64,000 nt of DNA from Ignavibacteria bacterium UBA7675 (GCA_002483085.1 DLHF01000072.1:28310-92309), one strand, 5' to 3'. Shown: positions 23,699 through 60,223, counted from the stretch's first letter. Translations and numbers: made by a program. Notes: generated by a model from the sequence alone, not told the origin.

Positions 23699-24019
23699 AC
23701 ACAGCTTACCATAAATTCGAGAGCACAAGCGCGGTAGATAGCCAAATGTACCGATACAGCGCTCCTGTAGAAACAGCGAAATTAGAGAAAATCCTCCAAA
23801 CTCCGAGCACCCATACAAAACAGCGCAGCAATCGCACTGCCACAGATAAGGAATGCCCATCCTGTCTATAACCCATTGACAGCTCTATTAGTGACGCCAA
23901 GGTACTATCCTCTTAAAAAATCATACAACTGATGTAAGGTATTTTTTAGTATCTTGCCGCGCAAAACCGGCGTACCGCACACCCGCTGTCGCCTTTCTAC
24001 GACCCGACATATTCCAACC

Positions 24020-27990: not shown

Positions 27991-28215
27991 CGCAAAAAAA
28001 TCGTCTATGGCAGTCTATAGACTAAGGCTTCTCTACTCCCAACAGAATAGGACAACCTACTCCGCGTTGATGATTCGTGTGATGGAAAGCCTTCACACAA
28101 GAAAAGCACATACATCATAGCACAGATTCGTTGGCTGTGAAAATTATTGTTCATAATTTGCATGCGTCCCATAATAATACGCTGTATTTGTTTACCCCTC
28201 ACTCCTGCGATCATC

Positions 28216-39536: not shown

Positions 39537-40406
39537 TTACAGAATAAGAGCGGCAAGTGCGATAAGCATGGCAGTAATGGCAAGGCCAATGGAGATCGTT
39601 CGGAGCGTGGCGATGTTTTTTTCTAATCCTTTTACTTTGTCGCGCAGTTGTTCTACTTCGCGGCGACCGGCGTAGGCACCGAGCGAAGCATCTATCGCTG
39701 GCAGGGGGGCTGCGTGAGTTGCAATTGTATGCTGAGCCTGAATTGAAAGCTGGGCGTTGAACAGCTTGGTTTCTATACGGTGCTCAGCTTCTTCGATCAT
39801 GGTCGTTACAATCTTTGTAGTCTCGTCAACGATGTATTTCGTTTCGGTGACTTTATTCTTAAACTGGTCGATATCGTCCTGCACAAGCCGCATCTCGCGT
39901 CGATGCAGATCGAGCAGGCCGACCAGCTTATTATCGAGCACCCGAATATCATCTTTTATCTGCTGGAACTGCAAAGCAACTCGGGTCTCGAAGTGATGAT
40001 AGCTTTCCTCGGCAATGCGTTTTATCTGATTTTCGCTTGTCCTGATAATTTTTTCAATTTCCTTTTTCTGTGTTTGGAGCACCGAGCTGAGCTCTTGAAG
40101 CGAAGCGCGAGTCTGCTCTATAGTACTCAACTGGTCGTAGAGCGCATTCAGAGTAGAAGCCTTGTGTTCGAGGGTGGAAAGTGCGCTTCGCATGGTGTCA
40201 TCGACTTTCCGGAGGCTCTCTTGTCCGGCAGCATGCACAAAATCACACTCTTCGCGCACCCGTTCTCCCTGGGTCGCAGTAGTGCGTGCAAGCGTATCAA
40301 GCTCTACCATGAGGCGCCCGTAGTCGCGAGCCTGCTCGCGTATCTTATCGAACAGCCCGGCAACTTCTGCGCTTATGGATTTGGATGTAGACTCGCCTGT
40401 TGACAT
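39537..40406 (-). CDS. Tail-anchored coiled-coil protein (hypothetical)
   Basis: About 260 aa of heptad-like, charged helical sequence, ending in a single TM segment (ISIGLAITAMLIALAALIL). Confidence 0.5.
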   Translation of the reverse strand: MSTGESTSKSISAEVAGLFDKIREQARDYGRLMVELDTLARTTATQGERVREECDFVHAAGQESLRKVDDTMRSALSTLEHKASTLNALYDQLSTIEQTRASLQELSSVLQTQKKEIEKIIRTSENQIKRIAEESYHHFETRVALQFQQIKDDIRVLDNKLVGLLDLHRREMRLVQDDIDQFKNKVTETKYIVDETTKIVTTMIEEAEHRIETKLFNAQLSIQAQHTIATHAAPLPAIDASLGAYAGRREVEQLRDKVKGLEKNIATLRTISIGLAITAMLIALAALIL

Positions 40407-40672
40407 AATTTTACATATTCTATAAAGAAGCTAAGACTTTCGCACATCTTTTCTAGCAAATACCGTTCTACCTGAGGTATAACTTCGGATGAACTACTGT
40501 AAAGCGCATCGATGATATGGCGCTGGTATTTTTCGTCCCAGTCAAAGCGCCTGCTCATATATTCTTCCAGAAAGGGTGCGAGTTCCCCTATCTCGGCAAG
40601 CTCATCAAAGATTGTGGAAAACGAGAGCTGCTCCTTTTGCTCAATGTTTGAGGAGTTCTGTTCGTCATTCAT
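40373..40672 (-). CDS. Small acidic hypothetical protein (99 aa)
   Basis: The ORF overlaps the downstream coiled-coil gene by 34 nt. No family was recognised. Confidence 0.4.
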   Translation of the reverse strand: MNDEQNSSNIEQKEQLSFSTIFDELAEIGELAPFLEEYMSRRFDWDEKYQRHIIDALYSSSSEVIPQVERYLLEKMCESLSFFIEYVKLCQQASLHPNP

Positions 40673-43632: not shown

Positions 43633-43664
43633 TAGCTCCATGCTGGAAGCGATGCGATAGCCCC

Positions 43665-44258
43665 ATGAAGAGAACCGCTTTTATTTCCTTGTTTCTGATA
43701 GTGCTCTGCACTGTATCTCTGCTCTATGGCAATAATAGCAACAACACAGATACAGAAAGCATGCTGCGCCAAGCCCGCATGCTATTCTACCGATCTGTGG
43801 AAGATGAGAAGTATATCAGCAGAGCCGAGGCTGCATTCCGCAAGCTCATGGACCACAATAAACAGCTCCAAGGCAGAGCCATAACGTATCTCGGCGCTCT
43901 GACAGCGATCAAAGGCAAACACGCCTTCTGGCCACACGATAAATGGGATCTTGCCAATGAGGGTATCGAACTCATGGACAAGGGTATTGCTATGGCTCCG
44001 AATGATGTCGAATCGCTGTTTATTCACGGTAGTACATGCTATTACTTGCCGTTTTTCTTCCACCGTGCCGACGACGCCCAGAGGAAATTTCGCAAGATTG
44101 TACAGTTGCTGCCCCACCAAGAAATGGAGTATGATGTAGAAATGCTGCACAATGTTGTCGATTTTATTGAAACAAATGCCGAACTCAGCGAAGCCGAGCA
44201 GCAACAGATCAGCAGCCTGCGCCGGAAACTCGCTACCCGCAGAACACCCGAAGGATAA
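43665..44258 (+). CDS. Hypothetical secreted helical protein
   Basis: MKRTAFISLFLIVLCTVSLLYG signal-like N-terminus followed by a helical repeat-like body. The track ORF 43098..44258 is open upstream only by chance and overlaps tspO in another frame. Confidence 0.55.
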   Translation: MKRTAFISLFLIVLCTVSLLYGNNSNNTDTESMLRQARMLFYRSVEDEKYISRAEAAFRKLMDHNKQLQGRAITYLGALTAIKGKHAFWPHDKWDLANEGIELMDKGIAMAPNDVESLFIHGSTCYYLPFFFHRADDAQRKFRKIVQLLPHQEMEYDVEMLHNVVDFIETNAELSEAEQQQISSLRRKLATRRTPEG

Positions 44259-44324: not shown

Positions 44325-45005
44325 ATGAACATCGAGTATCTGCTGTTGAACATTCTCATCCTCGCTGGTCCGATGGCGCTGAGCTTCGAACCAAGGATAC
44401 GGTTTGCTTCAAAATGGCGGCGCGTCCTCGCTTCGATCCTGCCACCTGCTTTGCTTTTTATTATCTGGGACAGCAATGTCACCAATCACCATTGGTTTTT
44501 CAATCCATCCTACACACTCGACATGCGGCTGCTCGGACTTCCAATCGAGGAATGGATGTTTTTTATTACAGTGCCCTACGCCTCGCTGTTTGTGTGGGAA
44601 AATATACAACTGTACCTGCTCCACCGCAGAGTGAAATGGCTGGCAGCTCTGCGATTTCTGCTCCTAGGAGCCTTACCGCTTGGGCTTGTGCTCTATGGCA
44701 GTGGCCCTGAGTACACAGCTCTTGCGCTGATAGCAATGGGCGGCTGCGCTCTGCTCGACCGCGCTCTGCACACCGATATTTTTCTGGATGTGCGCTACTA
44801 TGTATTCCTCGCAGTTACAACGATACTGATCCTCCTGTTCAACGGCTACCTTACAGCGCGCCCTGTAGTGCAATACGCTACTCAATACCAGCTCGACTAC
44901 CGCATCATTACCATACCTATAGAAGATTTTTTGTACGGCTATGCCCTGCTTACTGCGGCAGTCGTCTTGTATGAAGCATGGAAGAAAACGGAGAATCATG
45001 GCTAA
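44325..45005 (+). CDS. crtYcd: Lycopene cyclase domain protein (fused CrtYc/CrtYd type)
   Basis: About 226 aa polytopic membrane protein with two repeats of the lycopene-cyclase-domain pattern (…PIEEWMFFITVPYASLFVWE… / …IPIEDFLYGYALLTAAV…). Confidence 0.75.
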   Translation: MNIEYLLLNILILAGPMALSFEPRIRFASKWRRVLASILPPALLFIIWDSNVTNHHWFFNPSYTLDMRLLGLPIEEWMFFITVPYASLFVWENIQLYLLHRRVKWLAALRFLLLGALPLGLVLYGSGPEYTALALIAMGGCALLDRALHTDIFLDVRYYVFLAVTTILILLFNGYLTARPVVQYATQYQLDYRIITIPIEDFLYGYALLTAAVVLYEAWKKTENHG

Positions 45006-46476
45006 AACGATTGCAGTGATTGGAGCAGGATTAGGCGGCTTGAGTGCTGCTGTGCGGCTCGCCCACAAGGGATACCGTGTACGCTTGTTTGAGCGCAACA
45101 GTACAGTCGGTGGCAAAATGAATATCCGCCTTGCCGGTGGCTACCGCTTCGACACTGGCCCCTCGCTGCTTACCATGCCATTTGTCGTCGACGAGTTGTT
45201 TGCTTCCTCGGGATTTCGCCGCGAAGACTTTTTTGAGGTTCTTCCCATCGACCCAATTTGCCGGTATTTTTACCCCGACGGCACTGTGCTCGATACCCAT
45301 GCAGATACCGAACGAATGATGCAAGCGCTCGCGGTAATATCGCCCCGCGATGCCGATGCCTATAAGCAGTTCCTGAAGTATGCCCAGCGCATCTACGACA
45401 CGACTGCCGAGGTATTCCTCTTTACGCCAATTCACGAATGGAAAGAACTGCTTCGAGCGCGCTATCTGCCTACCCTGTTCGGCCTACGCCATATCGACGC
45501 ATTGCGTACAGTACACCGCAGCGTGTCGTCTTTCTTCAGCGACCCGCGTATCGTCCAGCTTTTCGACCGTTATGCTACCTACAATGGTTCTGATCCCTTC
45601 CGCGCACCCGCTACGCTCAATATCATTCCATATGTAGAATATGGATTAGGCGGCTACTACATACGCGGAGGAATGTACCGGCTTGTGGACGCACTAGTGG
45701 AAATTGCCGTCCGGCTCGGCGTGGAAATCTACACAAATGCCGCTGTGGAGCGCATTCTGCACAATAATGGCCGTGCGACAGGAGTATTAACAGATGGTCA
45801 GCCCATCGCCGCTGATGCAGTGATCTGCAATGCAGATGTCGTAGTAGCTCACAGCGAGCTGCTTGATATTCCACAGCGTGCAGAAAAACTCCGGGCACTC
45901 GAACCATCCATTTCCGGCATGGTCTTCCTCTGGGGAGTGCAAAAAAGTCATGCGGGGCTCGCACATCATAATATTATTTTTTCCAGCGACTACAGGCGGG
46001 AATTCACACAAATATTCGACCAGCACGCGGCGCCAGACGACCCTACGATATACATATCTATCACCGCAAAAACAGATCCTGACCACGCGCCTCCCGGCTG
46101 CGAGAACTGGTTTGTGCTGGTCAATATGCCTTACCTTGCACAGGGACAGGACTGGGCAACAATCGTGGCAACAATGCGAGCAACTGTTCTGGCCAAACTA
46201 CAACAAAACGGACTCGACATAGAAGAGCATATAGCACAGGAAGAAGTATTTACACCCGAGGACTTTTTCTCATTGTACGGAAGCAATCGCGGCAGCATTT
46301 ACGGGATTTCTTCCAACAGCCGGATGACAGCATTCAAGCGCCCGTCCAACCGCAGCAGAGACATTGCGGGATTGTTTTTTGCAGGTGGCTCTACCCATCC
46401 CGGCGGTGGCGTTCCCCTCGTATTGCTTTCCGGCAGCATGGCTGCCGACATGGCGAATACATACTGCACACTATAG
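44998..46476 (+). CDS. Phytoene-desaturase-family FAD oxidoreductase, CrtD-like (candidate 3,4-desaturase)
   Basis: Dinucleotide fold IAVIGAGLGGLSAAVRLAHKGYRVRLFE and a C-terminal FFAGGSTHPGGGVP motif. It is the second CrtI paralog in the cluster and overlaps crtYcd by 8 nt. Confidence 0.8.
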   Translation: MAKTIAVIGAGLGGLSAAVRLAHKGYRVRLFERNSTVGGKMNIRLAGGYRFDTGPSLLTMPFVVDELFASSGFRREDFFEVLPIDPICRYFYPDGTVLDTHADTERMMQALAVISPRDADAYKQFLKYAQRIYDTTAEVFLFTPIHEWKELLRARYLPTLFGLRHIDALRTVHRSVSSFFSDPRIVQLFDRYATYNGSDPFRAPATLNIIPYVEYGLGGYYIRGGMYRLVDALVEIAVRLGVEIYTNAAVERILHNNGRATGVLTDGQPIAADAVICNADVVVAHSELLDIPQRAEKLRALEPSISGMVFLWGVQKSHAGLAHHNIIFSSDYRREFTQIFDQHAAPDDPTIYISITAKTDPDHAPPGCENWFVLVNMPYLAQGQDWATIVATMRATVLAKLQQNGLDIEEHIAQEEVFTPEDFFSLYGSNRGSIYGISSNSRMTAFKRPSNRSRDIAGLFFAGGSTHPGGGVPLVLLSGSMAADMANTYCTL

Positions 46477-46901: not shown

Positions 46902-46939
46902 AAAAAAACAGAGCGGACAACTAACGCCGCCCGCTCTGT
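46902..46939 (-). terminator. Intrinsic terminator closing the small-protein array
   Basis: On the minus strand: acagagcgg...ccgctctgt stem followed by T7 (A-run 46902-46908 on the plus strand). Confidence 0.65.
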
Positions 46940-47000
46940 TCAAACAGGTAATTAATAGGTCATGAATGGAAAACCTGCAAGGGATGGTACCGAGGTGTTT

Positions 47001-47321
47001 CTATATAGTAAACACAGCTCTACCAGTTGTAACAACGAGTCTGTTCGGCGGATTCGGCGGCGGCACCGGGCCGTTAAATCCGATGGCATACATTAGACCT
47101 TGGTAGATCACGCCTGTCACCACACAGCCTACGGGAATGGGCACATTAATCACAGTATTAGGCAAAAGGTTAAAAGGCCCGATCGGACCACAGCTTGTAG
47201 AAATGAACACATTGTTCACTACGACCGGAGTGCTATTACCGAGATAATACGCATGTGCTTCTTCGGTTGTACCAACCAAAGTCACAACAATAGCAAAAAT
47301 AAGACCGATAAGAATTTTCAT
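47001..47321 (-). CDS. Small secreted PPPN-motif protein, type A (2 Cys), copy A1
   Basis: Signal peptide MKILIGLIFAIVVTLVGTTEEAHA. Mature protein: YYLGNSTP...SCGPIGPFNL...GCVVTG...GPVPPPNPPNRL. GGGGAA SD-like box upstream. Confidence 0.8.
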   Translation of the reverse strand: MKILIGLIFAIVVTLVGTTEEAHAYYLGNSTPVVVNNVFISTSCGPIGPFNLLPNTVINVPIPVGCVVTGVIYQGLMYAIGFNGPVPPPNPPNRLVVTTGRAVFTI

Positions 47322-47392
47322 AATGGATTCCCCAAAATAAAGAATGTATAAAAAAGGAATAGAGAACTACATTTGGACAAGCGCGGAAGTAT

Positions 47393-47716
47393 TTATAAGA
47401 ATACTGCTCTTGCAGGCGTTACGATCAGTCTATTGGGCGGATTCGGAGGAGGTGCCGGACCATCGTACCCAACCGGGAAAAACATCATTTGGTAGATAAT
47501 ACCAGTTACTGTACAAACGGCTGGAATCGCCACCGGCGTTACAGTACCAGCGGGCAGATTATACGGACCAAATGGTCCACAGGAAGTTTGTATATACACA
47601 CCTGCTACGGCAGCGGGGCTACTATTGCCCAGATAGTATGTAATTGCTTTTGCTTCGGTTGCAGCACCAAGCACCACAAGAAGAATAGCACAGACAAGCC
47701 CACTAATAAATTTCAT
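47393..47716 (-). CDS. Small secreted PPPN-motif protein, type A, copy A2
   Basis: Signal ...GAATEAKA, then YYLGNSSP...SCGPFGPYNLP...VCTVTG...GPAPPPNPPNRL. AGGAG upstream. Confidence 0.8.
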   Translation of the reverse strand: MKFISGLVCAILLVVLGAATEAKAITYYLGNSSPAAVAGVYIQTSCGPFGPYNLPAGTVTPVAIPAVCTVTGIIYQMMFFPVGYDGPAPPPNPPNRLIVTPARAVFL

Positions 47717-47762
47717 ATGAACTCCTACACGATAGAACTATAAAAAAGATTTTGCGACACAT

Positions 47763-47788
47763 GGCTCGATGTATTCGAGCCTTTTTCC
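47763..47788 (+). terminator. Orphan plus-strand hairpin + T-run inside the minus-strand array
   Basis: ggctcga (47763-47769) / tcgagcc (47775-47781) followed by ttttt. No plus-strand gene lies upstream closer than crtD-like. Confidence 0.35.
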
Positions 47789-47800
47789 TCTATGGAGCTG

Positions 47801-48154
47801 TTATTGAATTTCTGCACTGTCTATGCCAAACACACCAAACACAAGGAAGTTCGGGGGATTCGGCGGAACAATTGGTACAACCGTACCGGCGGGCTGAACT
47901 GGATAGAGATTGCCATTGACATCGATATCGGTGACAAAACATCCAGCGGGTACTGGCCATGTAAAGCACTGGCCGGGAACAAGCAGCATAGGGCACGGTG
48001 CAAGAGTTGTGCTTATGCCACCGCAGTCGGCGATCAGGCACACATTAACTGCAACCGGGCTGCTATTGCATATAGTATAATTTTGCGCCTTTACAGCAGC
48101 CGAGCCGAACACGGCAAAGAGCATGGCGCAGAGAAGAGCACTGAAAAATTTCAT
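47801..48154 (-). CDS. Small secreted PPPN-motif protein, intermediate type (6 Cys), copy C1
   Basis: From the internal Met at 48154: MKFFSALLCAMLFAVFGSAAVKA | QNYTICNSSP...DCGG...APCP...QCFTWPVPAGCFVT...PPNPPNFL. The track ORF extends to 48400 and overlaps the next gene. Confidence 0.75.
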   Translation of the reverse strand: MKFFSALLCAMLFAVFGSAAVKAQNYTICNSSPVAVNVCLIADCGGISTTLAPCPMLLVPGQCFTWPVPAGCFVTDIDVNGNLYPVQPAGTVVPIVPPNPPNFLVFGVFGIDSAEIQ

Positions 48155-48210
48155 GATATAATCCTGATAAAAATTATACAAAGAAAAGAACTCATTCAGC
48201 CACAGAGCTG

Positions 48211-48564
48211 TTAGTTTGAAATATCTGCTCCGTTCAAGCCAAAACATATCCTGTTTGGAGGATTTGGAGGTGCAAGCGGTAGACAAACGCCAGGAGCTTG
48301 AATTGGATAGAGCGTACCATTGACACGAACAGCTACCGGAGCACATCCCACAGGTACAGTCCAGGTTTGTCCTACCCCCGTAGCAAGCGACACGGAGCAT
48401 GGAGCAAGTAGAGAAAGGATACCGCCGCAGTTAATTTGCAGACAAACACTAACAGTAGTACCGGGACTGGAATTCCAGACCGTATAAGGAGTTTGTGCCT
48501 GCGTGCTCGACGAGCCGAGCACAGCAAAGAACAGAGTGCAGAGAAGACTGATAAAAATCTTCAT
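48211..48564 (-). CDS. Small secreted PPPN-motif protein, intermediate type (6 Cys), copy C2
   Basis: MKIFISLLCTLFFAVLGSSSTQA | QTPYTVWNSSP...NCGG...APCS...VGCAPV...APPNPPNRICF. An alternative start lies 3 codons upstream at 48573. Confidence 0.75.
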   Translation of the reverse strand: MKIFISLLCTLFFAVLGSSSTQAQTPYTVWNSSPGTTVSVCLQINCGGILSLLAPCSVSLATGVGQTWTVPVGCAPVAVRVNGTLYPIQAPGVCLPLAPPNPPNRICFGLNGADISN

Positions 48565-48675
48565 AGAATACATACAACTAAAGATGAAAAAATGACACTA
48601 TGCCACATAGACAGACTGGTTCTCCACAAAAGAAGCACACATACGATCTCTATGTGAGCTATAAACACCCGAACA

Positions 48676-49032
48676 CTACCGTATTACCACCTGCACAACA
48701 GCAGCTCCACCGGAGTAGCAAACCCAGTTGGGCGGTGGTGCAGCTACAGGATAACAAAACGGGAAAGCAGCGGGCACTGGATAAAAAACACCGTTTACTC
48801 TTGTGCCCGACACCACACAGCCTGTAGGCACATTCCAGGTAAAGCACGCACCCGGCGCAATGAGAGCAGGGCAAGGTGCAAGAGTACCTACAACTCCACC
48901 ACAGTTCACATGAATACAAACAGCTACTGCTACTGTAGAGTTATTGCAGACAGCATAGATTTGCGCCTGTGCACTGATCGAACCGAGAGCAGTGAGCAGA
49001 ATCGCACAAAGAAAAGCACTAAAAAATTTCAT
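48676..49032 (-). CDS. Small secreted PPPN-motif protein, type B (8 Cys), copy B1
   Basis: MKFFSAFLCAILLTALGSISAQA | QIYAVCNNST...NCGG...APCPALIAPGACFTWNVPTGCVVSG...PFCYPVAAPPPNWVCY. Confidence 0.8.
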   Translation of the reverse strand: MKFFSAFLCAILLTALGSISAQAQIYAVCNNSTVAVAVCIHVNCGGVVGTLAPCPALIAPGACFTWNVPTGCVVSGTRVNGVFYPVPAAFPFCYPVAAPPPNWVCYSGGAAVVQVVIR

Positions 49033-49140
49033 ACTTATTCCTAATGATGGCAGTGATTAAAATTTATCGATAGAATATTCTTCTCGTACACACCGAGAGC
49101 CTGCACGGCGTGCGTACAGGCTCTCGAAAAGAAAACAGGC

Positions 49141-49494
49141 CTATTGAATACGAACCTGAGGCACTCCTCCGGTATAGCATACCCAATTGGGCGGAGGTGC
49201 TGCTACAGGATAGCAAAACGGGAAAACAGCGGGCACTGGATAAGCCACACCATTCACTCGTACACCTGTTACCACACAAGCTGCGGGAACATTCCAAGTA
49301 AAGCATGCACCGGGTGGGATCATCGCCGGGCAGGGAGCGAGAAATGCCACGGCGCCACCACAATTGACGCGCACACATACTGATACTGGAACATTAGAAT
49401 TATTACAAACAACATACGGTTGTGCCTGTGCATCAGGCGTTGGGCTGAGCACAGCAAAAAGTATTGCGCAAATAGCGCCAATGAAAAATTTCAT
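49141..49494 (-). CDS. Small secreted PPPN-motif protein, type B, copy B2
   Basis: Signal ...PDAQA | QPYVVCNNSN...NCGG...APCPAMIPPGACFTWNVPAACVVTG...PFCYPVAAPPPNWVCY. AGGAG upstream. Confidence 0.8.
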   Translation of the reverse strand: MKFFIGAICAILFAVLSPTPDAQAQPYVVCNNSNVPVSVCVRVNCGGAVAFLAPCPAMIPPGACFTWNVPAACVVTGVRVNGVAYPVPAVFPFCYPVAAPPPNWVCYTGGVPQVRIQ

Positions 49495-49645
49495 AATAGC
49501 TCCTAAAAAATAATAATGATGAATTGTGTTTTCCCCTGATACAGCGCTGGCTGATAGATATCAATCTCGTCTCCCTGATGCCAGCAACAAGGAAATAAAA
49601 GCCTGAGCGAACAATCCGCCCAAACTTCCCAGCACAGCAAAAATT

Positions 49646-50014
49646 CTACCGGATAATCACCTGAGGTACACCACCTGTATAGCATACCCAGTTCGGCGGA
49701 GGTGCGAGCACACCATAGCAAAACGGTATAGCAGCGGGCACGCCATAGAAGACACCGCCAACAGTAACGCCTGTTACAACACAAGCAGCCGGAACTGGCC
49801 ATGTAAAGCATCCGCCGGGCGGAATAATAGCAGGACAAGGGCCAATATTGACAATCACACCACCACAATTGGCCTGAAGGCACACAGCTACTGGAACTGT
49901 GGTATTATTACACACTGTGTACGGCTGTGCCTGCACGGACTCTGTAGCCGCAATGCTCAGCACCATGATGAAGGCTGCAACAAGTAGCCCTGTGAGTTTG
50001 TTGACAAATTTCAT
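49646..50014 (-). CDS. Small secreted PPPN-motif protein, type B, copy B3
   Basis: Signal ...ATESVQA | QPYTVCNNTT...NCGG...GPCPAIIPPGGCFTWPVPAACVVTG...PFCYGVLAPPPNWVCY. Confidence 0.8.
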   Translation of the reverse strand: MKFVNKLTGLLVAAFIMVLSIAATESVQAQPYTVCNNTTVPVAVCLQANCGGVIVNIGPCPAIIPPGGCFTWPVPAACVVTGVTVGGVFYGVPAAIPFCYGVLAPPPNWVCYTGGVPQVIIR

Positions 50015-50620
50015 AAAAAACCCCTAATGAAGAGTAAATGAAAAATGGGAAATGGGAACCTGCTGCAAGGCTTCCCCGGCCAAGCAACAACCGATACAAT
50101 AGAGTATCAGCTTGGGAATTCATGAGACTGCGGATAACAGCAATAGTAAGGAGCGGAACAAAATCCAGTAAAAATTTGGTACATGCGTGGGAACACCTAA
50201 TAAATTTCCAGACAACGGTGAACCACCGGTTCTGTGTGTGGATTGCGAGGTGTTGTCTACCACTGAGTACTCTCTGTATAACAAGATTTTGCACTATTGC
50301 TGTTGATATACAATAGAGAGTTGCACACTGCTGTACAACCCTCTGTTGAAATTGGACATGCAACTCCAGCACGGCAAACAAGAGCATACACAAACAACAC
50401 ATAGAGCAATGGACATTGCCTCGTGCTGTCTGTGTATCTCGCCCTCATATTTTCTACTTGCTATGAAAAACATCGGGTACATAGTTCACTGTGCATAGAG
50501 TGTTGCAGAAATCGTGTCATTGCCGAGTTGGCTTTGACTCTTTATACAATGCTTAACTAATGGCCACAATGAAGCACTTGCGCTCTTTTGCAATTGCACA
50601 AATGCCCGCGCCGCCATGTA

Positions 50621-50941
50621 CTACCAGAATGTAGCGCCATTCGGCGTTACCGTAACACCATTCGGCGGATTAGGCGGAGGAACAGGACCTGTATAGCCTA
50701 TAGGAAAGAATGCACCGCGAAACATAATTCCCGTTACTCTACAATTGGCAGGAATTGGGATGTTAATTGTCGCAGGGCCTGCAGGAAGGTTAAAGGGGCC
50801 GAATGGACCACAGGTCGTCCGGATAATAATACCATTCACCGGGACAGGCGTGTTGTTGGTTAGGAAATACGCCTGTGCGTCTGTTGTCGTACCGACAACT
50901 GCAAAAAGAATAGCGCACAAAATACCTACAAGCAGTTTCAT
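50621..50941 (-). CDS. Small secreted PPPN-motif protein, type A, copy A3
   Basis: From the internal Met at 50941: MKLLVGILCAILFAVVGTTTDAQA | YFLTNNTP...TCGPFGPFNLP...NCRVTG...GPVPPPNPPNGVTVT. GGGGAG upstream. Confidence 0.8.
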   Translation of the reverse strand: MKLLVGILCAILFAVVGTTTDAQAYFLTNNTPVPVNGIIIRTTCGPFGPFNLPAGPATINIPIPANCRVTGIMFRGAFFPIGYTGPVPPPNPPNGVTVTPNGATFW

Positions 50942-51454
50942 ATGATCTCCCCGAAACGATGGAAAAACAATTAATAAATAAACACCATCTATTGGTGTAG
51001 CGACTGCACAATGCCGATGTACAAAGAGGCGGCACCGCATTGTTTCTACAGGTAACGCCTTTGCCCTTTACAAAGCATTATCAGATATCCACGAACAGGG
51101 CTTGGCACATCATACCCCAGAAGTCTCTAACTTGATTGCTGCACGGTGCAGGTGTAGCCGCAAGCGCAAGTAGTCCTTGAATATGGGCTTATCCGTTATC
51201 AAGTGATCCAGCAGTATTTTCTGCTGTACCTTCTCCACTTGGCATCAGAAGTCTCTGATGCCAATAATCCAACTATATATAAATACCACTCATACCATAA
51301 GTGCCGCAGCTTACTCCCCTGTCGCGGCCCTTACTATACTAATAGTGCATGTACGAACCTCACAGCATGCTGTCTACCAGGAGGTGCAGGAATCATGTGA
51401 TTGCCGCAGAATACTATTACAACTTTGCAACTGCGTAAATGTCCATATCGCAGC

Positions 51455-51775
51455 CTACCAAAATGTAGCACCGGTGGAGGTTACCGTAACACCATTCGGC
51501 GGATTAGGCGGAGGCACAGGACCCGAATAGCCTACGGGAAAGAACATCCCGCTGTACAGGATACCTCCCACGTTACAACTAGTCGGAATGGGAACGTTAA
51601 TTGAGCTAGGCCCCGGGGGAAGGTTAAAAACCCCAAATATACCGCAGCTCGTCCGGATCTGAATGCCATTCACTGGCGCCGATGTGCTGTTGGTAAGGAG
51701 GTACGCATGTGCGTCTGTTGTTGTACCAACAACTGTAAAAAGAACAGCACACAAAATGCCTACAAGCAGTTTCAT
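51455..51775 (-). CDS. Small secreted PPPN-motif protein, type A, copy A4
   Basis: From the internal Met at 51775: MKLLVGILCAVLFTVVGTTTDAHA | YLLTNSTS...SCGIFGVFNLP...SCNVGG...GPVPPPNPPNGVTVT. GGGGAA upstream. Confidence 0.8.
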   Translation of the reverse strand: MKLLVGILCAVLFTVVGTTTDAHAYLLTNSTSAPVNGIQIRTSCGIFGVFNLPPGPSSINVPIPTSCNVGGILYSGMFFPVGYSGPVPPPNPPNGVTVTSTGATFW

Positions 51776-52215
51776 ATTATTTCCCCGATAGGATAAAAAA
51801 AGGTTTATGAACATGCCACTATCAATTATTAGTGTGGCAACTATGCAATGCCGATGTTCCTTCTCCAAATGGTATCGGAAGACCCCAATACCAATATTCC
51901 AACTCCATATAAATATCTCTCATACCATAGACACGGCAACGCATTCCCCTGCCGTAGTTGTCGGTACACTGCTGCTGTGCGACAACTACCCTTTCCCGTA
52001 CCAAATTACAGAGCACCGCAGCAAATTGATATAGGAGCATGGCGGATTCGGAAGTAAGAAGATCACCGTTTTAGCAGTAGGAAATTGTCCGATATGCCTA
52101 TCGGAAAATTCTTACTCTTCAGTCTTTAACATCAGCTTTTTAGCTACGCTCCGGAACGAACTCGCAAGAAGCTGTGTTATAGCCACGGATTTCCAACAAC
52201 ATCCCAGTGAGAGTT

Positions 52216-53745
52216 ATGCACAGTATTGCAGTAGTAGGTTCGGGGTTTGGCGGTCTGGCAGCAGCTATACGACTTCAAGCCCGGGGATTTCAGGTGACAA
52301 TTTTCGAGAAAAATGAGCGCGTAGGTGGCCATGCGTCGCAGCTCGTAAAGAATGGCTATACATTCGACATGGGCCCTTCGCTTATTACTGCTCCCGATAT
52401 TATTCGCAGTGTGTTTGCAAGCGCGGGGCGGCGCATGGAGGACTACCTCGATCTTATACCATTAGACCCGTACTACCGCATTTACTTCCACGACGGTACG
52501 TTTATCGACTACACAGGCGACGCCGATAGAATGAAGCAAGCAATGGCGCAGTTCCATCCTGGCGATGCTGCTGCCTACGACCAGTTCATGGCCCACACTC
52601 GCAAGATTTACGACGCCGTTATTACCGATGGCCTAGGAGCTACGCCGTTTATGGACCTTGGTACAATGGCGAGCTTTCTGCCAAAAGCGCTTCGTCTGGG
52701 AGCTCTCAAACCCGCCTACTCATTTGTAAAAAAATATTTTAAGGATGCACGCCACCGCTTCTGCTTCTCTTTTCATCCGCTGTTTATAGGTGGCAATCCT
52801 TTCCGCGCTCCGTCGGTGTACCTGATGATACCGTATTTAGAAAAAGCAGGCGGAGTGTGGTTTACCACCGGCGGTATGTACTCGCTCGTGCAAGCGTTCC
52901 AGCGCTTATTTACAGAGCTCGGCGGCACTATCAAAACATCATCGGAAATACAACGCATACTCGTGAGCAATGGCCGTGCATGTGGTGTAGAAACAATATC
53001 GGGCGAACAATTCGCCTCCGATGCCGTGATTTCCAATGCCGATATTGTCCATACCTACAGCGATCTCATCGCTCCGGAACAGCGCCGTAAATGGTCGGAT
53101 CGGCGCCTGCATTCTACTAAGTATTCCATGAGCGCCTTCCTGCTGTACATCGGCGTAAAAAAACAATACCCGCAGTTGCTCCACCATACGCTGATACTCT
53201 CAGAGCGATACCGCGAGCTCGTGTACGATATATTCGACCGGCACATTCTGCCCGAGGATTTCTCCATGTACCTGCACGTGCCTACTCGCACCGATCCGGC
53301 AATGGCGCCGCCCGGCTGCGAAAGCATGTACGTACTAGTACCAGTTGCCAATCTCGCGTCGGGAACAAATTGGGAAACGACAAAACACACCTATGGCGAG
53401 CGTCTGCTCGACTTTCTGGAAAAAGATTTTGGCATGGAAGACCTGCGCGCAAACATCGAAGTGTTGGAACTATTTACGCCCGATGATTTCCGCACAGAGC
53501 GCAATTCCTTCCTCGGCAGCGCATGGGGCGTAGAGCCGCATTTACTGCAAACTGCTTATTTCCGACCGCACAATCGCAGTGAAGATATCGAGCGCCTGTA
53601 CTTTGTGGGAGCAGGCACTCATCCCGGCGCAGGAGTTCCGGGCGTGCTTCTTACTGCCGAAGCGACAGAAAAGGTACTGCTCAGCGATTTTGCCGCACAC
53701 GCAGGAATTCCGGCTTCATCGGTCGGAGCAGAAAAAGCGAGATAA
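52216..53745 (+). CDS. crtI: Phytoene desaturase
   Basis: IAVVGSGFGGLAAAIRLQARGFQVTIFEK dinucleotide fold, full-length CrtI-type sequence and a C-terminal YFVGAGTHPGAGVPGV motif. A GTG at 52207 is an alternative start. Confidence 0.9.
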   Translation: MHSIAVVGSGFGGLAAAIRLQARGFQVTIFEKNERVGGHASQLVKNGYTFDMGPSLITAPDIIRSVFASAGRRMEDYLDLIPLDPYYRIYFHDGTFIDYTGDADRMKQAMAQFHPGDAAAYDQFMAHTRKIYDAVITDGLGATPFMDLGTMASFLPKALRLGALKPAYSFVKKYFKDARHRFCFSFHPLFIGGNPFRAPSVYLMIPYLEKAGGVWFTTGGMYSLVQAFQRLFTELGGTIKTSSEIQRILVSNGRACGVETISGEQFASDAVISNADIVHTYSDLIAPEQRRKWSDRRLHSTKYSMSAFLLYIGVKKQYPQLLHHTLILSERYRELVYDIFDRHILPEDFSMYLHVPTRTDPAMAPPGCESMYVLVPVANLASGTNWETTKHTYGERLLDFLEKDFGMEDLRANIEVLELFTPDDFRTERNSFLGSAWGVEPHLLQTAYFRPHNRSEDIERLYFVGAGTHPGAGVPGVLLTAEATEKVLLSDFAAHAGIPASSVGAEKAR

Positions 53746-55721: not shown

Positions 55722-56378
55722 ATGAAAGCTGTTATTTTTGACATGGACGGTGTGCTGGTCGACAGCGAGCCTTTGTATATCAGCATGAACCAAAAGTTCT
55801 TCCGCGAGCTCGGTGCCGATATTTCGATGGAAGAACACCAGGCATTTGTTGGTATTTCCGCCGTCGCTATGTGGAGCTTCATCCGCGAAAAATTTGCGCT
55901 CTCTGCTACTGTGGAGGAACTGGTTCACAGAGAAAAAGAATTGAAATTTCAGCTTCTACAAGAATCGAATCTGCAAGCGATAGAAGGCACACCCGAACTA
56001 CTGGCAGTTCTGCGCGACAGCGGTGTTCCTCTCGCTCTTGGCACTTCTTCTCTGAGAAAAAACGCCGATCTGATACTCGGCACCATTGGTCTGCTGCCAT
56101 ACTTTGATGTACGAACAACAGGCGAAGAGATAAAGCGCGGCAAACCCAATCCCGATGTATTCCTGCTGGCTGCCGAAAAGATGAACCGAGCTCCACAGGA
56201 GTGTATTGTTGTCGAAGATTCGGCAAATGGAGTAAAGGCCGCAAAAGCCGCAGGAATGATATGTATAGCTTTTCGCAATCCCAACTCTGGCTATCAGGAT
56301 ATCAGCGCTGCGGATTATATCGTGGAGGATTTTGGCAGCCGCACAAGAGAGTTTATTACAAGGTTGTGTGCCCGTTAA
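55722..56378 (+). CDS. HAD-IA family hydrolase (beta-phosphoglucomutase-like)
   Basis: Motif I is FDMDGVLVDSE. GTSS, K...GKPNP and EDSANG(V) supply motifs II-IV. Confidence 0.85.
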   Translation: MKAVIFDMDGVLVDSEPLYISMNQKFFRELGADISMEEHQAFVGISAVAMWSFIREKFALSATVEELVHREKELKFQLLQESNLQAIEGTPELLAVLRDSGVPLALGTSSLRKNADLILGTIGLLPYFDVRTTGEEIKRGKPNPDVFLLAAEKMNRAPQECIVVEDSANGVKAAKAAGMICIAFRNPNSGYQDISAADYIVEDFGSRTREFITRLCAR

Positions 56379-56518: not shown

Positions 56519-57493
56519 TTACCAGCCGAGCAACCACGCAAAAATCAGCGGTGCTACAATAGTAGCGTCCGACTCAATCACGAATTTTGGCGTGTTGATG
56601 TCGAGCTTACCCCACGTAATTTTTTCGTTGGGCACAGCGCCAGAGTACGAGCCATAGCTCGTTGTCGAGTCGGAAATCTGGCAAAAGTAGCTCCAGAACG
56701 GCACATCGTGCATTTCCATATCTTGATACAGCATCGGCACCACGCAGATCGGGAAATCGCCTGCAATACCGCCGCCTATCTGGAAAAAGCCAATGCCCTT
56801 GCCACCGGAGTTTTTCGTGTAGTAGTCGGCCAGCCACACCATGTACTCAATACCGCTTTTCATGGTCGAGGGCAGAAGCTCGCCCTTGATACAGTACGAA
56901 GCAAAAATATTACCCATTGTGGAGTCTTCCCAGCCCGGGCAGATAATCGGCAGATTGCGCTCGGCAGCGGCAATCATCCAGCTATCCTTTGGGTCGATCT
57001 CGTAATATTGCTCCATCTCGCCGGAAAGCAGCATTTTGTACATGTATTCGTGCGGTAAATACCGCTCGCCACTGTCGTTGGCCTGCTTCCACAATTTGAA
57101 AATGTGCTTCTGTATGCGGCGGAAAGCTTCTTCCTCCGGAATACAAGTGTCGGTAACGCGGTTAAAGCCGTTTTCCAGCAGTTCCCACTCATCTTGTGGG
57201 CTCAAGTCGCGGTAGTGCGGCACGCGCTTGTAGTGCGAATGCGCTACAAGGTTCATAATATCTTCTTCGAGGTTAGCGCCGGTGCACGAGATAATGTCCA
57301 CCTTGCCCTGCCGGATCATTTCGGCAAGCGATTTGCCGAGCTCGGCTGTGCTCATTGCGCCCGCAAGCGTTACCATCATCTTACCGCCTTCGGCCAGATG
57401 CGTTTCGTAGCCTTTCGCTGCATCGACAAGTGCCGCTGCATTGAAGTGCTTGTAATGATGTTCGATAAACTGGGAGATCGGTCCTCTGGTCAT
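56519..57493 (-). CDS. Deoxyhypusine synthase-like protein
   Basis: 324 aa with the DHS-family pattern (MVTLAGAMSTAELG, IISCTGANLEEDI, GGGIAGDFP). Confidence 0.85.
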   Translation of the reverse strand: MTRGPISQFIEHHYKHFNAAALVDAAKGYETHLAEGGKMMVTLAGAMSTAELGKSLAEMIRQGKVDIISCTGANLEEDIMNLVAHSHYKRVPHYRDLSPQDEWELLENGFNRVTDTCIPEEEAFRRIQKHIFKLWKQANDSGERYLPHEYMYKMLLSGEMEQYYEIDPKDSWMIAAAERNLPIICPGWEDSTMGNIFASYCIKGELLPSTMKSGIEYMVWLADYYTKNSGGKGIGFFQIGGGIAGDFPICVVPMLYQDMEMHDVPFWSYFCQISDSTTSYGSYSGAVPNEKITWGKLDINTPKFVIESDATIVAPLIFAWLLGW

Positions 57494-57700: not shown

Positions 57701-57818
57701 ATTCCCCTATAGCTCGTTGCCAATACTTCCGCCCCACTCCGCATTACATCACCACTCCGCTTGGCTCAGTCGCCACCTTTTTGCACTTTTGTAGCACTTT
57801 TTCCTCTATGGAGCATTT

Positions 57819-58583
57819 ATGACAGCAACAGGACAACACTTCAAAGACCTCTTTTCCCGGCAGTCGGCAGTGTACAGGCAGGCTCGCCCGGGCTATCCAG
57901 ATAGCCTGTTTCGCTGGCTGGCCTCACTCGTACCAAAAGACGCTACCCTGTGGGACTGTGCTACGGGCAATGGGCAAGCTGCGGTATCGCTTGCTCAATA
58001 TTTCCCACATATTATCGCTACTGATGCCAGCGAGGAGCAGATACGCAATGCTGTGGCTCACAACCGCATCAGCTATCGCGTCGCTCCTGCCGAACACAGC
58101 GGCCTACCCGATAGCTCCGTAGACCTTATCACCGTGGCCACCGCCGCGCACTGGTTCAACCACGACGCTTTTTACCAAGAGGTACACCGCGTGCTGAAGC
58201 CCGGTGGCGTGCTCGCACTCTGGACATACCACAGCACTACTATTGCGCCCGATATCGACGCCGTTGTAGCTCGCTACGAAACAGGCATATTAGATGGCTA
58301 CTGGGCCAAAGAAATACGGCATGTAGCCAATCGCTATACAACGCTCCCCTTTCCGTTTCCCCTGATAGATACACCTGTGCTACAAAGCCAGGTACTTTGG
58401 ACATTAGAACAACTGGCGGGATTCTTCATGAGCTGGTCGGCTACACAACACTATATAGCTCTCAACCGCTCAAACCCCCTCGATCTTATAATGCCCGCGC
58501 TGCAAAGCGTGTGGGGCGACCCCAGCCAGAAACGCGATGTGGCTTGGAATTTGGCGATCAAAGCAGGACGAAAACTGCCATAA
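57819..58583 (+). CDS. Class I SAM-dependent methyltransferase
   Basis: Motif I is LWDCATGNGQAA, with an acidic residue after beta-2 (IATDAS) and LKPGGVLALW as post-II. Confidence 0.8.
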   Translation: MTATGQHFKDLFSRQSAVYRQARPGYPDSLFRWLASLVPKDATLWDCATGNGQAAVSLAQYFPHIIATDASEEQIRNAVAHNRISYRVAPAEHSGLPDSSVDLITVATAAHWFNHDAFYQEVHRVLKPGGVLALWTYHSTTIAPDIDAVVARYETGILDGYWAKEIRHVANRYTTLPFPFPLIDTPVLQSQVLWTLEQLAGFFMSWSATQHYIALNRSNPLDLIMPALQSVWGDPSQKRDVAWNLAIKAGRKLP

Positions 58584-58766
58584 TTCTCTCCAAACGGGAA
58601 CCAGATGCACAAGGGCTGTTGTTTTTGGTGCTTCTCTGCTATCGGGAACAATTCACAGTCTACAGGCCGTTTGAGGAATAAAGCTACAGAGACGAGGAGC
58701 TCAGATCGAGCAGCTCAATGTAGCTGGGCGGGTAACAGCGGCAGCGCACAATGCTGTACAGAAGGA

Positions 58767-59465
58767 ATGATGAATACTTATAGGATAAAACTACTTGCGT
58801 TGTATCTGTTGCTCATAGCGGGGGGATTGTGGCATGTGCTGCATGTATTTCAGCATACAATGCAGGTGCTCGCTGTTCCGATGATCGTTGGTATCAGCCT
58901 GTGGCTTGCCTACGAATACTGGCATTTATACGCTCTTCCTCTGCTTATCGACACTCAATCACCGCGCCTGCGACAGAGGAATTTTGCGCTGTGGTGCATA
59001 GGCGTAGTAGCAGCGGGAATTGGCGTAGAAGCCCTTGGCGTGCGCACCGGCTTGGTATTTGGGCACTACGAGTATGGCAGTCTCCTTGCGCCGTTCATAG
59101 GCCCGGTGCCGCTGGCCATTGGTTTTGCTTGGCTTGGCATGATGCTGTGCTCTGTTGCCATTGTCACCCGCTCAACACCGCGCTCCCTGCGCCTCAACCC
59201 ATTTGCCGGTGCGCTGATGACCGCTCTGTTTATGATGATTTTTGACGTTCTGATGGAGCCCGCAGCAATAGCTCTCGGCTATTGGCACTGGTTTGGCGAA
59301 AGCATCCCGCTACAAAATTATATCGCCTGGTTTGGCGTGAGCTTTGTCTTTGCCTACATAGGCTTTCGGCTCCAATTGTTCGCAGGAAAAGCCCCGCTTG
59401 TAGCTCTCCACGCCTATTTTGCACAGGCATTGTACTTTGCGCTTGTAGCCATAGGAGCCTCATGA
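58767..59465 (+). CDS. cruF: Carotenoid biosynthesis membrane protein, DUF422 / CruF-like (candidate carotenoid 1',2'-hydratase)
   Basis: Polytopic membrane protein with GLVFGHYEYG and FDVLMEPAAIALGYWHW motifs, which I remember from the CruF/DUF422 family. Start chosen at the MMNTYR Met pair. Confidence 0.7.
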   Translation: MMNTYRIKLLALYLLLIAGGLWHVLHVFQHTMQVLAVPMIVGISLWLAYEYWHLYALPLLIDTQSPRLRQRNFALWCIGVVAAGIGVEALGVRTGLVFGHYEYGSLLAPFIGPVPLAIGFAWLGMMLCSVAIVTRSTPRSLRLNPFAGALMTALFMMIFDVLMEPAAIALGYWHWFGESIPLQNYIAWFGVSFVFAYIGFRLQLFAGKAPLVALHAYFAQALYFALVAIGAS

Positions 59466-60223
59466 AACCACATGATACTACCACAGGTCTCGCTCTGGCC
59501 TTTGCTCTTCTCAGCCTCTGGCTCGCCAGCCTCATCTGGCTTCTTTCCGCCGATCTCAATCACTTTTCTCTCGCCTTCATCCCTGTAGCATTCCTTCTGC
59601 AAACATTTCTCTATACTGGCCTCTTTATTACCGCACACGACGCTATGCACGGCACAGTAGCGCCCGGCTATCCAGCGCTCAACCGAGCTATTGGCAGTGT
59701 AGCTATTGTGCTGTACGCGCTCTTCGACTACCGACACCTACAGGCCAAGCATTTTGAACACCACAGGCACCCCGCACGCGAAGGCGATCCAGACTACCAC
59801 GATGGTCGGCACACGGGCTTTATGCGGTGGTACGCGCATTTTATGCTCGGCTATATGTCGTGGCGCCAGATAGTAGGCATGGCCATTGCGTTCAATATCC
59901 TCCACCATCTCGCAGGTATTCCACTCAGCAATCTGCTGCTATTTTGGGTAGCGCCTGCCCTGCTGAGCACCGCCCAGCTTTTTTACTTTGGCACGTATCT
60001 GCCTCACCGCCAGCCCGCCGAAGGCTACGGCAATCCGCACCACGCCCGCAGCAGCAACTATTCCGCTGTGCTGTCGTTCCTCGCCTGTTACCATTTTGGC
60101 TATCACTACGAACACCACGACCATCCATCAGTACCCTGGTGGCGCCTGCCATCACTACGACAAAACACCCAACTCCGTAAACGAACTGTTGATAATTCCC
60201 CGCGCGACACTACAACTGCATAG
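59462..60223 (+). CDS. crtW: Beta-carotene ketolase
   Basis: Histidine boxes AHDAMHG, FEHHRHP and HYEHHDHPSVPWWRLP are collinear with the Paracoccus-type CrtW as I remember it. The ATGA overlaps the cruF-like stop. Confidence 0.85.
   Translation: MKPHDTTTGLALAFALLSLWLASLIWLLSADLNHFSLAFIPVAFLLQTFLYTGLFITAHDAMHGTVAPGYPALNRAIGSVAIVLYALFDYRHLQAKHFEHHRHPAREGDPDYHDGRHTGFMRWYAHFMLGYMSWRQIVGMAIAFNILHHLAGIPLSNLLLFWVAPALLSTAQLFYFGTYLPHRQPAEGYGNPHHARSSNYSAVLSFLACYHFGYHYEHHDHPSVPWWRLPSLRQNTQLRKRTVDNSPRDTTTA

Follow-up and report, generated by a model that had tools for sequence, protein, structure and literature searches.

The question raised by the locus described here is what a tandem array of nine small genes is doing inside a carotenoid biosynthesis operon. 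The array lies on the minus strand, at 47001-51775, of a 64,000-nucleotide (64 kb) stretch of DNA from Ignavibacteria bacterium UBA7675 (GCA_002483085.1 DLHF01000072.1:28310-92309), hereafter called the window. An original prediction, made from the nucleotide sequence, had described the genes as encoding secreted proteins of no known family and as splitting a carotenoid cluster. The results indicate that they are real genes of a new family of exported proteins, and that the array was inserted once into an ancestral carotenoid operon.

The nine co-oriented genes were located by listing the open reading frames (ORFs), and a hidden Markov model (HMM) of the family, run against the whole window, gave nine matches, every one within the array. 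The precursors are 106-122 amino acids (aa) long and the spacers, from the gene 1 end upward, measure 71, 84, 56, 102, 108, 151, 606 and 513 bp, in agreement with the predicted lengths of about 105-122 aa and, at 56-606 bp, with the predicted spacers of 56-600 bp. Shine-Dalgarno (SD)-like boxes of the types GGAG, GGGG or AGGA are positioned 6-12 nt 5' of eight of the nine ATGs; the prediction of a separate box for each gene holds for these eight and fails for gene 4, where the box is weak. A terminator belonging to the array, predicted at 46902-46939, was found within a few nucleotides of that position. The flanking genes are all on the plus strand, with TspO, a lycopene-cyclase-domain protein and a CrtD-like protein encoded on the left and a CrtI-family protein, phytoene synthase and an acyltransferase on the right. 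The flank annotation is consistent with the predicted position of the array between two carotenoid half-clusters and antisense to both. The features are as follows.

44941-46476 (+), CrtD-like desaturase: left edge of the interrupted operon, its 3' end converging with the 3' end of the array
46906-46941 (-), intrinsic terminator at the array end: 16-bp stem and T-run, folding free energy (dG) -29.2 kcal/mol, z -6.7
47001-47321 (-), gene 1: 106 aa precursor, subfamily A, 2 Cys, C-terminus RAVFTI, orthogroup 6
47393-47716 (-), gene 2: 107 aa precursor, subfamily A, orthogroup 6
47801-48154 (-), gene 3: 117 aa precursor, subfamily B, 6 mature Cys; start corrected to ATG 48154
48211-48573 (-), gene 4: 120 aa precursor (117 aa from the alternative ATG 48564), subfamily B, 6 Cys
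48676-49032 (-), gene 5: 118 aa precursor, subfamily B, 8 Cys
49141-49494 (-), gene 6: 117 aa precursor, subfamily B, 8 Cys; mature domain modelled
49597-49629 (-), terminator-like hairpin directly 3' of gene 7: z -2.5, one among several intergenic hairpins in the array
49646-50014 (-), gene 7: 122 aa precursor, subfamily B, 8 Cys
50621-50941 (-), gene 8: 106 aa precursor, subfamily A variant, C-terminus GATFW, orthogroup 4; start corrected to 50941
51455-51775 (-), gene 9: 106 aa precursor, orthogroup 4; first gene of the array, divergent from crtI
52207-53745 (+), CrtI-family phytoene desaturase: right edge of the interrupted operon, divergent from gene 9

Signal peptides were read directly from the sequences and their alignment. 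All nine precursors have Lys at position 2, a hydrophobic core of ~15 residues and then a cleavage tripeptide (AHA, AKA, VKA, TQA, AQA, AQA, VQA, AQA and AHA), which accords with the Sec signal and AxA-type site originally claimed for each. Among 81 members of the family, position -3 is Ala or Val in 72 and position -1 is Ala in 78, and position +1 is Gln in 64 of 70. The basic N-terminus, hydrophobic core and small residues at -3 and -1 are those of a substrate of Sec and signal peptidase I. The lipobox [LVI][ASTVI][GAS]C of lipoproteins, processed by signal peptidase II, was sought at the cleavage sites and found at none of them; where Cys occurs inside a signal peptide it is in the middle of the hydrophobic core with L or I at -1 (e.g. 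GILC, ALLC). The proteins therefore look exported, judging by their sequences.

The mature part is 73-95 aa long. The nine copies align collinearly with invariant Y25, N29, C44-G45, P63, C66, P89 and P91-P92-N93, consistent with the single motif skeleton proposed for them, and the Asn, both Cys and the central Pro of PPP are invariant over the 81 family members. The tripeptide N-x-[ST] at the invariant Asn, retained in 95% of members, may be a structural turn or a glycosylation sequon. The composition is dominated by Pro (16%), Val (12.5%), Thr (11%), Gly (10%), Ile (8%) and Asn (6.5%), with a grand average of hydropathy (GRAVY) of +0.2 to +0.9. Charged residues (D+E+K+R) make up 1-5% of the nine mature proteins, which contain no lysine; the median over 49 members, 42 of them free of Lys, is 2.5% as compared with 21% in the other long ORFs of the window. 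No catalytic motif, cofactor site or partner gene was recognized for the array proteins.

The number of Cys in the mature protein is 2, 4, 6 or 8 and is even in 82 of 83 members, a count for which two overshoots of the cleavage heuristic were fixed by eye. Gains occur in pairs of alignment columns, given here in the numbering of the gene 6 precursor.

Cys 45-73: invariant, 81 of 81
Cys 30-64: perfect co-occurrence (phi 1.0), 20 sequences
Cys 28-66: perfect co-occurrence (phi 1.0), 7 sequences; same antiparallel register as 30-64, each pair summing to 94
Cys 38-58: perfect co-occurrence (phi 1.0), 3 sequences
Cys 40-55: phi 0.92
Cys 94-106: phi 0.96

An even Cys count and six column pairs, one invariant and five at phi 0.92-1.0, are what is found in disulfide-bonded proteins. 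The paired gains indicate disulfides, here predicted, that were added to a fixed beta scaffold in an oxidizing compartment, and they indicate one universal predicted disulfide with up to three more added pairwise. AlphaFold2 returned an all-beta sandwich for the gene 1 precursor (predicted local distance difference test [pLDDT] 88.1, predicted template modeling score [pTM] 0.70) and for the mature domain of gene 6 (ten strands, pLDDT 95.4, pTM 0.83), with 9-10 strands over both models. Since the alternating pattern of the predicted strands turns Val and Ile inward and Thr, Asn, Ser, Gln and Arg outward, the surface of the protein is probably uncharged-polar instead of simply greasy.

Ratios of nonsynonymous to synonymous substitution (dN/dS) obtained by the Nei-Gojobori method were 0.03-0.15 for orthologues on different contigs, one example retaining 94% amino-acid identity at a dS of 0.89, and 0.15-0.4 for paralogues (0.24 for gene 8 versus gene 9 and 0.15 for gene 5 versus gene 6). 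Since dN/dS is 0.03-0.4, Cys residues are gained pairwise and the AlphaFold models are confident, the results indicate that the nine ORFs are real coding genes.

Relatives of the encoded proteins were sought by sequence, profile and structure. Profiles of Pfam and NCBIfam gave no match below E = 0.1 for the array proteins, those of PADLOC and PHROGs no match, and a profile search of PDB sequences no match; the viral contigs and plasmids searched held no relatives. Foldseek against PDB found nothing beyond E 0.03 and a template modeling score (TM) of 0.42, the best matches being the VHL beta-domain, thaumatin and MoHrip2, and nothing significant in BFVD; over the two databases no listed match exceeded TM 0.47. 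Thus the claim that no known family is recognizable was upheld, including by the structural comparison of the confidently modeled mature domain. Kinship with the VHL beta-domain, thaumatin or MoHrip2 was rejected at TM <= 0.42. These proteins are likewise beta-sandwiches, and thaumatin-like proteins are also secreted and rich in disulfides, but the matches have E values of 0.03-0.3 and TM of 0.40-0.42 with a query of pLDDT 95, and size, Cys pattern and organisms differ. For thaumatin-like proteins in particular (~200 aa, 16 conserved Cys, PF00314), there was no Pfam match and Foldseek gave a partial alignment at E 0.1 and TM 0.40.

Homology to PKD and FN3 domains was also rejected. Marginal E values of 3e-5 to 7e-4 to giant PKD/FN3 proteins proved to be additive sums; with profile A4 re-run on these giants each stretch was insignificant (independent E > 1e2), and in P0049, the only giant read at residue level, they cross the boundary between two PKD repeats. 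No Pfam match to PKD (PF00801/PF18911) or fn3 (PF00041) was obtained for any of the nine proteins. The PKD, FN3 and Ig-like domains of type IX secretion system (T9SS) surface proteins share the all-beta sandwich of ~80-90 residues, whereas the array proteins are stand-alone single domains with signal peptides of their own; they end 10-15 residues past the PPNPPN motif with no Pfam match to the T9SS Por_Secre_tail.

Members of the family were recovered by searches of very large collections. HMMER over 1.84 billion representative proteins identified 32 proteins at E <= 1e-3, ~25 of which are genuine small secreted members, and a word-indexed search of 5.8 billion proteins gave 19-23 clusters, all from metagenomic contigs or the window itself. 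Scans of genome collections rest on short exact peptide patterns; one of 185,579 species genomes and of metagenome contigs of the Joint Genome Institute (JGI) found none, with a pattern limited to GP[VA]PPPNPP that missed the known JGI contig L001. The most distant members, P0041 and P0048, sit on short contigs. Overall, the searches indicate that the protein family is new, with no close known relative, and very rare, all relatives found being on metagenomic contigs. The fold topology, as modeled, is probably new as well. Tandem families of small secreted proteins restricted to one lineage are in themselves a familiar general phenomenon.

The position of the array was examined by comparison with other carotenoid (crt) loci. 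The nearest species-representative genomes have CrtI proteins at most 71% identical and are metagenome-assembled genomes (MAGs) labeled Calditrichia/Calditrichota, Poribacteria, KSB1, Zhuqueibacter and Ignavibacteria. In ~25 genomes of neighboring lineages the genes for lycopene cyclase, crtD, crtI, crtB and acyltransferase are contiguous and co-directional, often with a gene here termed p200 first, and the gap between crtD and crtI is 100-250 bp. No family member was present in 80 fetched loci of neighboring lineages (+/-10 kb of crtI). Arrays of 5-10 genes linked to crt genes were found on six related contigs (L001, L002, L084, L087, L088 and L091). In L001, ten copies are located between crtI-crtB-acyltransferase-glycosyltransferase and crtD. 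At least eight copies in L084, five in L087 and seven in L088, and the one copy at the end of the short contig L091, adjoin crtI-crtB and are divergent from crtI; in L002, at least four copies adjoin crtD-cyclase-p200-tspO-relA. Identities to the window proteins are 78-85% for CrtI, 67-83% for CrtB, 67-69% for CrtD and 89% for RelA, which indicates divergence of the array-bearing contigs well past the species level.

Since crtD and crtI are adjacent and the family is absent in neighboring lineages, and since the array adjoins crtI-crtB and/or crtD in six contigs, the results indicate that the array was inserted once, in the ancestor of the clade and in antisense orientation, into an ancestral p200-cyclase-crtD-crtI-crtB-acyltransferase operon and has been kept since, across divergence at the family level. 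The same layout in contigs with CrtI only 78-85% identical indicates that the insertion is old and retained. The insertion that was predicted to split the carotenoid cluster is thus borne out by family HMM and synteny, and the proposal of an insertion stands, now as an old and retained event, although the link to carotenoid genes is not absolute. In L093 (90-3791), where RelA is 94% identical to that of the window, seven copies directly adjoin tspO and p200, cyclase and crtD are absent from the junction; either p200, cyclase and crtD have disappeared or been relocated, or the array itself underwent rearrangement. In L092 (272-3644), two copies come directly after an ABC-2 ATPase/permease pair, in the same orientation, and are themselves followed by a terminator-like hairpin, with no crt gene in view; the window has no homologue of this transporter. 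A mobile-element origin of the array was rejected, there being no viral or plasmid relatives, no PADLOC or PHROGs matches, and no integrase or tRNA in the window.

The members fall into orthogroups, listed here along the direction of array transcription, which in the crt-linked arrays runs from the crtI side to the crtD side.

Window: 4 4 2 2 2 3 3 6 6
L001: 10 8 10 9 6 6 6 6 6
L084: 10 10 8 8 10 9 7 6
L088: 10 10 8 9 6 6
L087: 10 11 1 1 6

Type 6, with the C-terminus RAVF, is proximal to crtD wherever that end is seen (window, L001, L002) and, in L084, L087 and L088, is the final type seen where the contig breaks off. At the crtI-proximal end the types vary by lineage, with type 4 in the window and type 10 in L001, L084, L087 and L088. 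Synteny is kept across contigs at dS of ~0.7-2. These results indicate that the array grows by local tandem duplication into stable orthogroups, which return in a similar order from contig to contig. The original prediction of repeated duplication and diversification is not supported in its second part, the paralogues being not fast-diversifying but members of stable orthogroups under strong purifying selection. Orthogroup stability and purifying selection (orthologue dN/dS of 0.03-0.15) therefore argue against a toxin or decoy, which the prediction had suggested, and against an arms race. Public gene calls are on the wrong strand over family members of L001 at 6577-6873 (-) and 7692-7975. The L001 copy at 7692-7955 is an open frame lacking a start codon and signal peptide and may be a pseudogene or an assembly error. 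A 271-aa gene call between crtI and the array of L087 was rejected as a spurious Arg/Pro-rich ORF.

What the exported proteins do can be addressed by analogy. Coat and interfacial proteins, among them chaplins, hydrophobins and BslA, typically form small multigene families whose secreted products carry little charge. Since the array proteins form such a family, are constrained over the whole sequence and are kept together as several types, we tentatively favor, as a possibility short of an even chance, that they are non-enzymatic coat or assembly modules of the cell envelope which self-associate or co-assemble. The precursors would be exported by Sec and the mature sandwiches locked by disulfides in an oxidizing compartment. 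They would then serve, in stoichiometric amounts, as structural or coating modules of the envelope, be it in the periplasm, in the outer membrane or on the surface, through self-association or co-assembly of several paralogue types, and the divergent control region of gene 9 and crtI could allow expression along with the pigment genes. The host is a diderm, as the window encodes Omp85 and OmpA-domain proteins. If they are coat or assembly modules, the array proteins would represent the first described case of such a system in this part of the Fibrobacteres-Chlorobi-Bacteroidetes (FCB)-like radiation. The combination of a confidently predicted sandwich of 80-95 aa with almost no charged residues and no lysine, pairwise disulfides, 5-10 conserved paralogues and a fixed position in a pigment operon is one of traits that rarely coincide.

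Several points weigh against a coat or assembly role. No assembly, secretion or anchoring partner that could take the proteins past the periplasm is encoded nearby. An uncharged-polar surface, as read from the strand pattern, would not by itself predict self-assembly, and retention of the array beside pigment genes would fit a carotenoid-related role as well. BslA, an Ig-like beta-sandwich, was not among the best 50 Foldseek PDB matches listed, and the analogy with it is therefore functional only. BslA, chaplins and hydrophobins resemble the array proteins in being small, secreted and non-enzymatic, often with several paralogues, and in their low charge and hydrophobic composition. They differ in that no sequence, profile or Foldseek similarity was detected and in that the host of the array, being a diderm, offers no obvious way to the cell surface. 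Class I and II hydrophobins have 8 Cys in 4 disulfides, and subfamily B likewise has 8 Cys, but the hydrophobin spacing C-CC-C-C-CC-C with its CC doublets is absent from the array family; with no Pfam or NCBIfam match, the proteins belong to none of the three families.

The main rival to coat or assembly modules is that the proteins hold or shuttle a carotenoid, possibly a carotenoid glycoside ester, in the periplasm or outer membrane, which we consider doubtful. Such a role would account for the location of the array within the crt cluster and divergent from crtI in at least six divergent contigs, for an L093 array that still adjoins tspO, a part of the crt neighborhood in the window and L002, and for the very low charge and positive GRAVY. 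The acyltransferase, CruF-like and desaturase genes, with the glycosyltransferase of relatives, imply a modified membrane-bound pigment. The crt-linked arrays are, however, probably the product of one insertion event and count as one observation, and the opposite orientation of the array precludes co-transcription with the crt genes. Neighboring lineages have the same crt operon with no family member within +/-10 kb of crtI, so that the pathway does not need the array; the L092 copies behind an ABC-2 exporter have no crt gene in view, the L093 junction is without p200-cyclase-crtD, and 5-10 conserved paralogues are unexpected for a simple carrier. The known carotenoproteins (OCP/HCP, the NTF2-type CTDH, fasciclin-type AstaP and the lipocalin crustacyanin) showed no similarity by Pfam or among the best 50 Foldseek PDB matches listed. 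It is unlikely that the family is a new class of exported carotenoproteins which was recruited into the crt operon and binds carotenoid glycoside esters made by the flanking genes. If carotenoid binding were true, it would provide a protein handle on the placement of carotenoids outside the cytoplasmic membrane of diderm bacteria.

An array of periplasmic inhibitors or immunity proteins, small beta-sandwich binders that would neutralize lysozymes, proteases or interbacterial effectors, is improbable. It would fit small, periplasmic, single-domain proteins with predicted disulfides that occur as tandem paralogue types, several with promoter- or terminator-like signals of their own, and the lack of a cognate enzyme gene recalls orphan immunity islands. 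Orphan immunity arrays, PliC/MliC and Ivy are similarly beta-rich small periplasmic proteins, in tandem and with no partner enzyme. The array, on the other hand, is one homologous family of one-to-one orthologues under purifying selection (dN/dS 0.03-0.15), unlike arms-race genes, and a surface nearly free of charge is unusual for tight protein-protein inhibitors. No inhibitor or immunity match was found with PADLOC, Pfam or NCBIfam, there is no effector, recombinase or mobile-element context, and membership in defense, phage or mobile-cargo families is contradicted by the lack of PADLOC and PHROGs matches and of viral or plasmid relatives. Still less probable, to the point of being very unlikely, are secreted toxins or bacteriocin-like peptides of 75-95 aa, with disulfides, that would recall class II microcins by their size and composition. 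The small size of the proteins, their hydrophobicity and their low charge are compatible with such peptides, and the ABC-2 ATPase/permease pair before the two L092 copies is readable as an immunity pump. The leader is nevertheless a Sec signal and not of the double-glycine type, the window encodes no C39-peptidase exporter or immunity gene, and no class II microcin or double-glycine bacteriocin genes were found in the array or its flanks. A diderm host would hold Sec-exported products in the periplasm, and nine conserved paralogues under purifying selection with a compact, confidently predicted sandwich are not expected of toxins. Chance ORFs or decaying duplicates, which could be argued from a family unannotated everywhere and the L001 copy at 7692-7955 with no signal peptide, are effectively refuted by dN/dS far below 1, conserved signal peptides, SD boxes, paired Cys gains, confident AlphaFold models and synteny at dS of ~0.7-2.

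Regulation of the array can be considered, tentatively, from the non-coding DNA. Genes 8 and 9, which are 75% identical, are parts of an 834-bp duplication unit, and the following elements lie in this part of the array.

50015-50620 (either strand), spacer between genes 8 and 7: 606 bp, non-coding
51825-51857 (-), sigma-70-like promoter match upstream of gene 9: consensus match only
51855-51954 (-), 100-nt element in the gene 9-crtI intergenic region: second copy at 51225-51324, 75% identity

An 81% identical promoter-like stretch precedes gene 8 (50990-51020 versus 51827-51857), and the 100-nt element holds an inverted repeat of 9-11 bp of which both arms changed together between the copies. 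Further long spacers are at 50942-51454 and 51776-52206 (431 bp). No decayed family copies were detected in the 431-606 bp spacers even with filters off, and the only Rfam match in the array, a sub-threshold L20 leader, is the terminator hairpin. Ahead of most of the other genes there is a hairpin, together with an AT-rich stretch and an SD box. As a result of the insertion, crtI-crtB-acyltransferase must be driven from the 431-bp region common with gene 9, and this divergent region makes co-regulation of the array and crtI plausible. A search for an operator common to crt and array promoters gave no convincing motif, with low counts but a few pairs above shuffle expectation, and blastn detected no intergenic nucleotide conservation in relatives.

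Two further non-coding observations were made. An identical 18-nt CTTTTTCCTCTATGGAGC is present at 57797-57814, just 5' of the methyltransferase start codon, and at 47781-47798 (+), where it is antisense to the array and falls in the spacer of genes 3 and 2; by chance ~0.06 occurrences would be expected, and the meaning of the identity is doubtful. In relatives, a hairpin with a conserved GGCC-containing loop precedes by ~55-70 nt the CPGPP-type genes (orthogroups 8 and 9), a gene type absent from the window. Compensatory changes are seen in three of six pairs, and the hairpin could be an mRNA processing or stabilizing signal or a protein-binding palindrome. Its locations are as follows.

L001: 7031-7110 and 9340-9420
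L084: 7060-7140, 7530-7610 and 9190-9270
L088: 3330-3410 and 4650-4730

The p200 gene of the window, at 43647-44258 (+) between tspO and the lycopene cyclase gene, encodes 203 aa with an N-terminal hydrophobic segment and no Pfam match. Homologues are found at this place in the crt operons of many MAGs labeled Calditrichia, Poribacteria or KSB1 and in that of L002, which indicates that p200 is an unannotated conserved member of the carotenoid operon. The carotenoid region continues 3' of crtB-acyltransferase to 60223.

55722-56378, HAD hydrolase
56519-57493, deoxyhypusine-synthase-like gene, on the opposite strand
57819-58583, methyltransferase
58605-59465, Caroten_synth/CruF-like gene
59282-60223, fatty-acid-desaturase-family gene

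Elsewhere in the window, giant proteins of 1462 and 1433 aa are encoded at 2786-7174 (-) and 13791-18092 (+), each with IgGFc_binding and ASH/HYDIN-type Ig-like domains; the two may be paralogous. Close by are genes for a PD40-repeat/OmpA-domain protein (7465-10173) and for an Omp85-family protein (22085-23860); taken with the giants, these have the look of large proteins from the surface or envelope of a diderm cell. Three ORFs in a row, each of 640-670 aa and with no Pfam match (25858-27804, 28147-30069 and 30009-32024, all +) are located 3' of a gene for a transglutaminase-core protein (23954-25861). Upstream of relA, at 39537-40672 (-), are two ORFs with no Pfam match, one of 289 aa, coiled-coil-like with a hydrophobic C-terminus, and one of 99 aa, both of which seem to be conserved beside relA in L002 (7717-8801).

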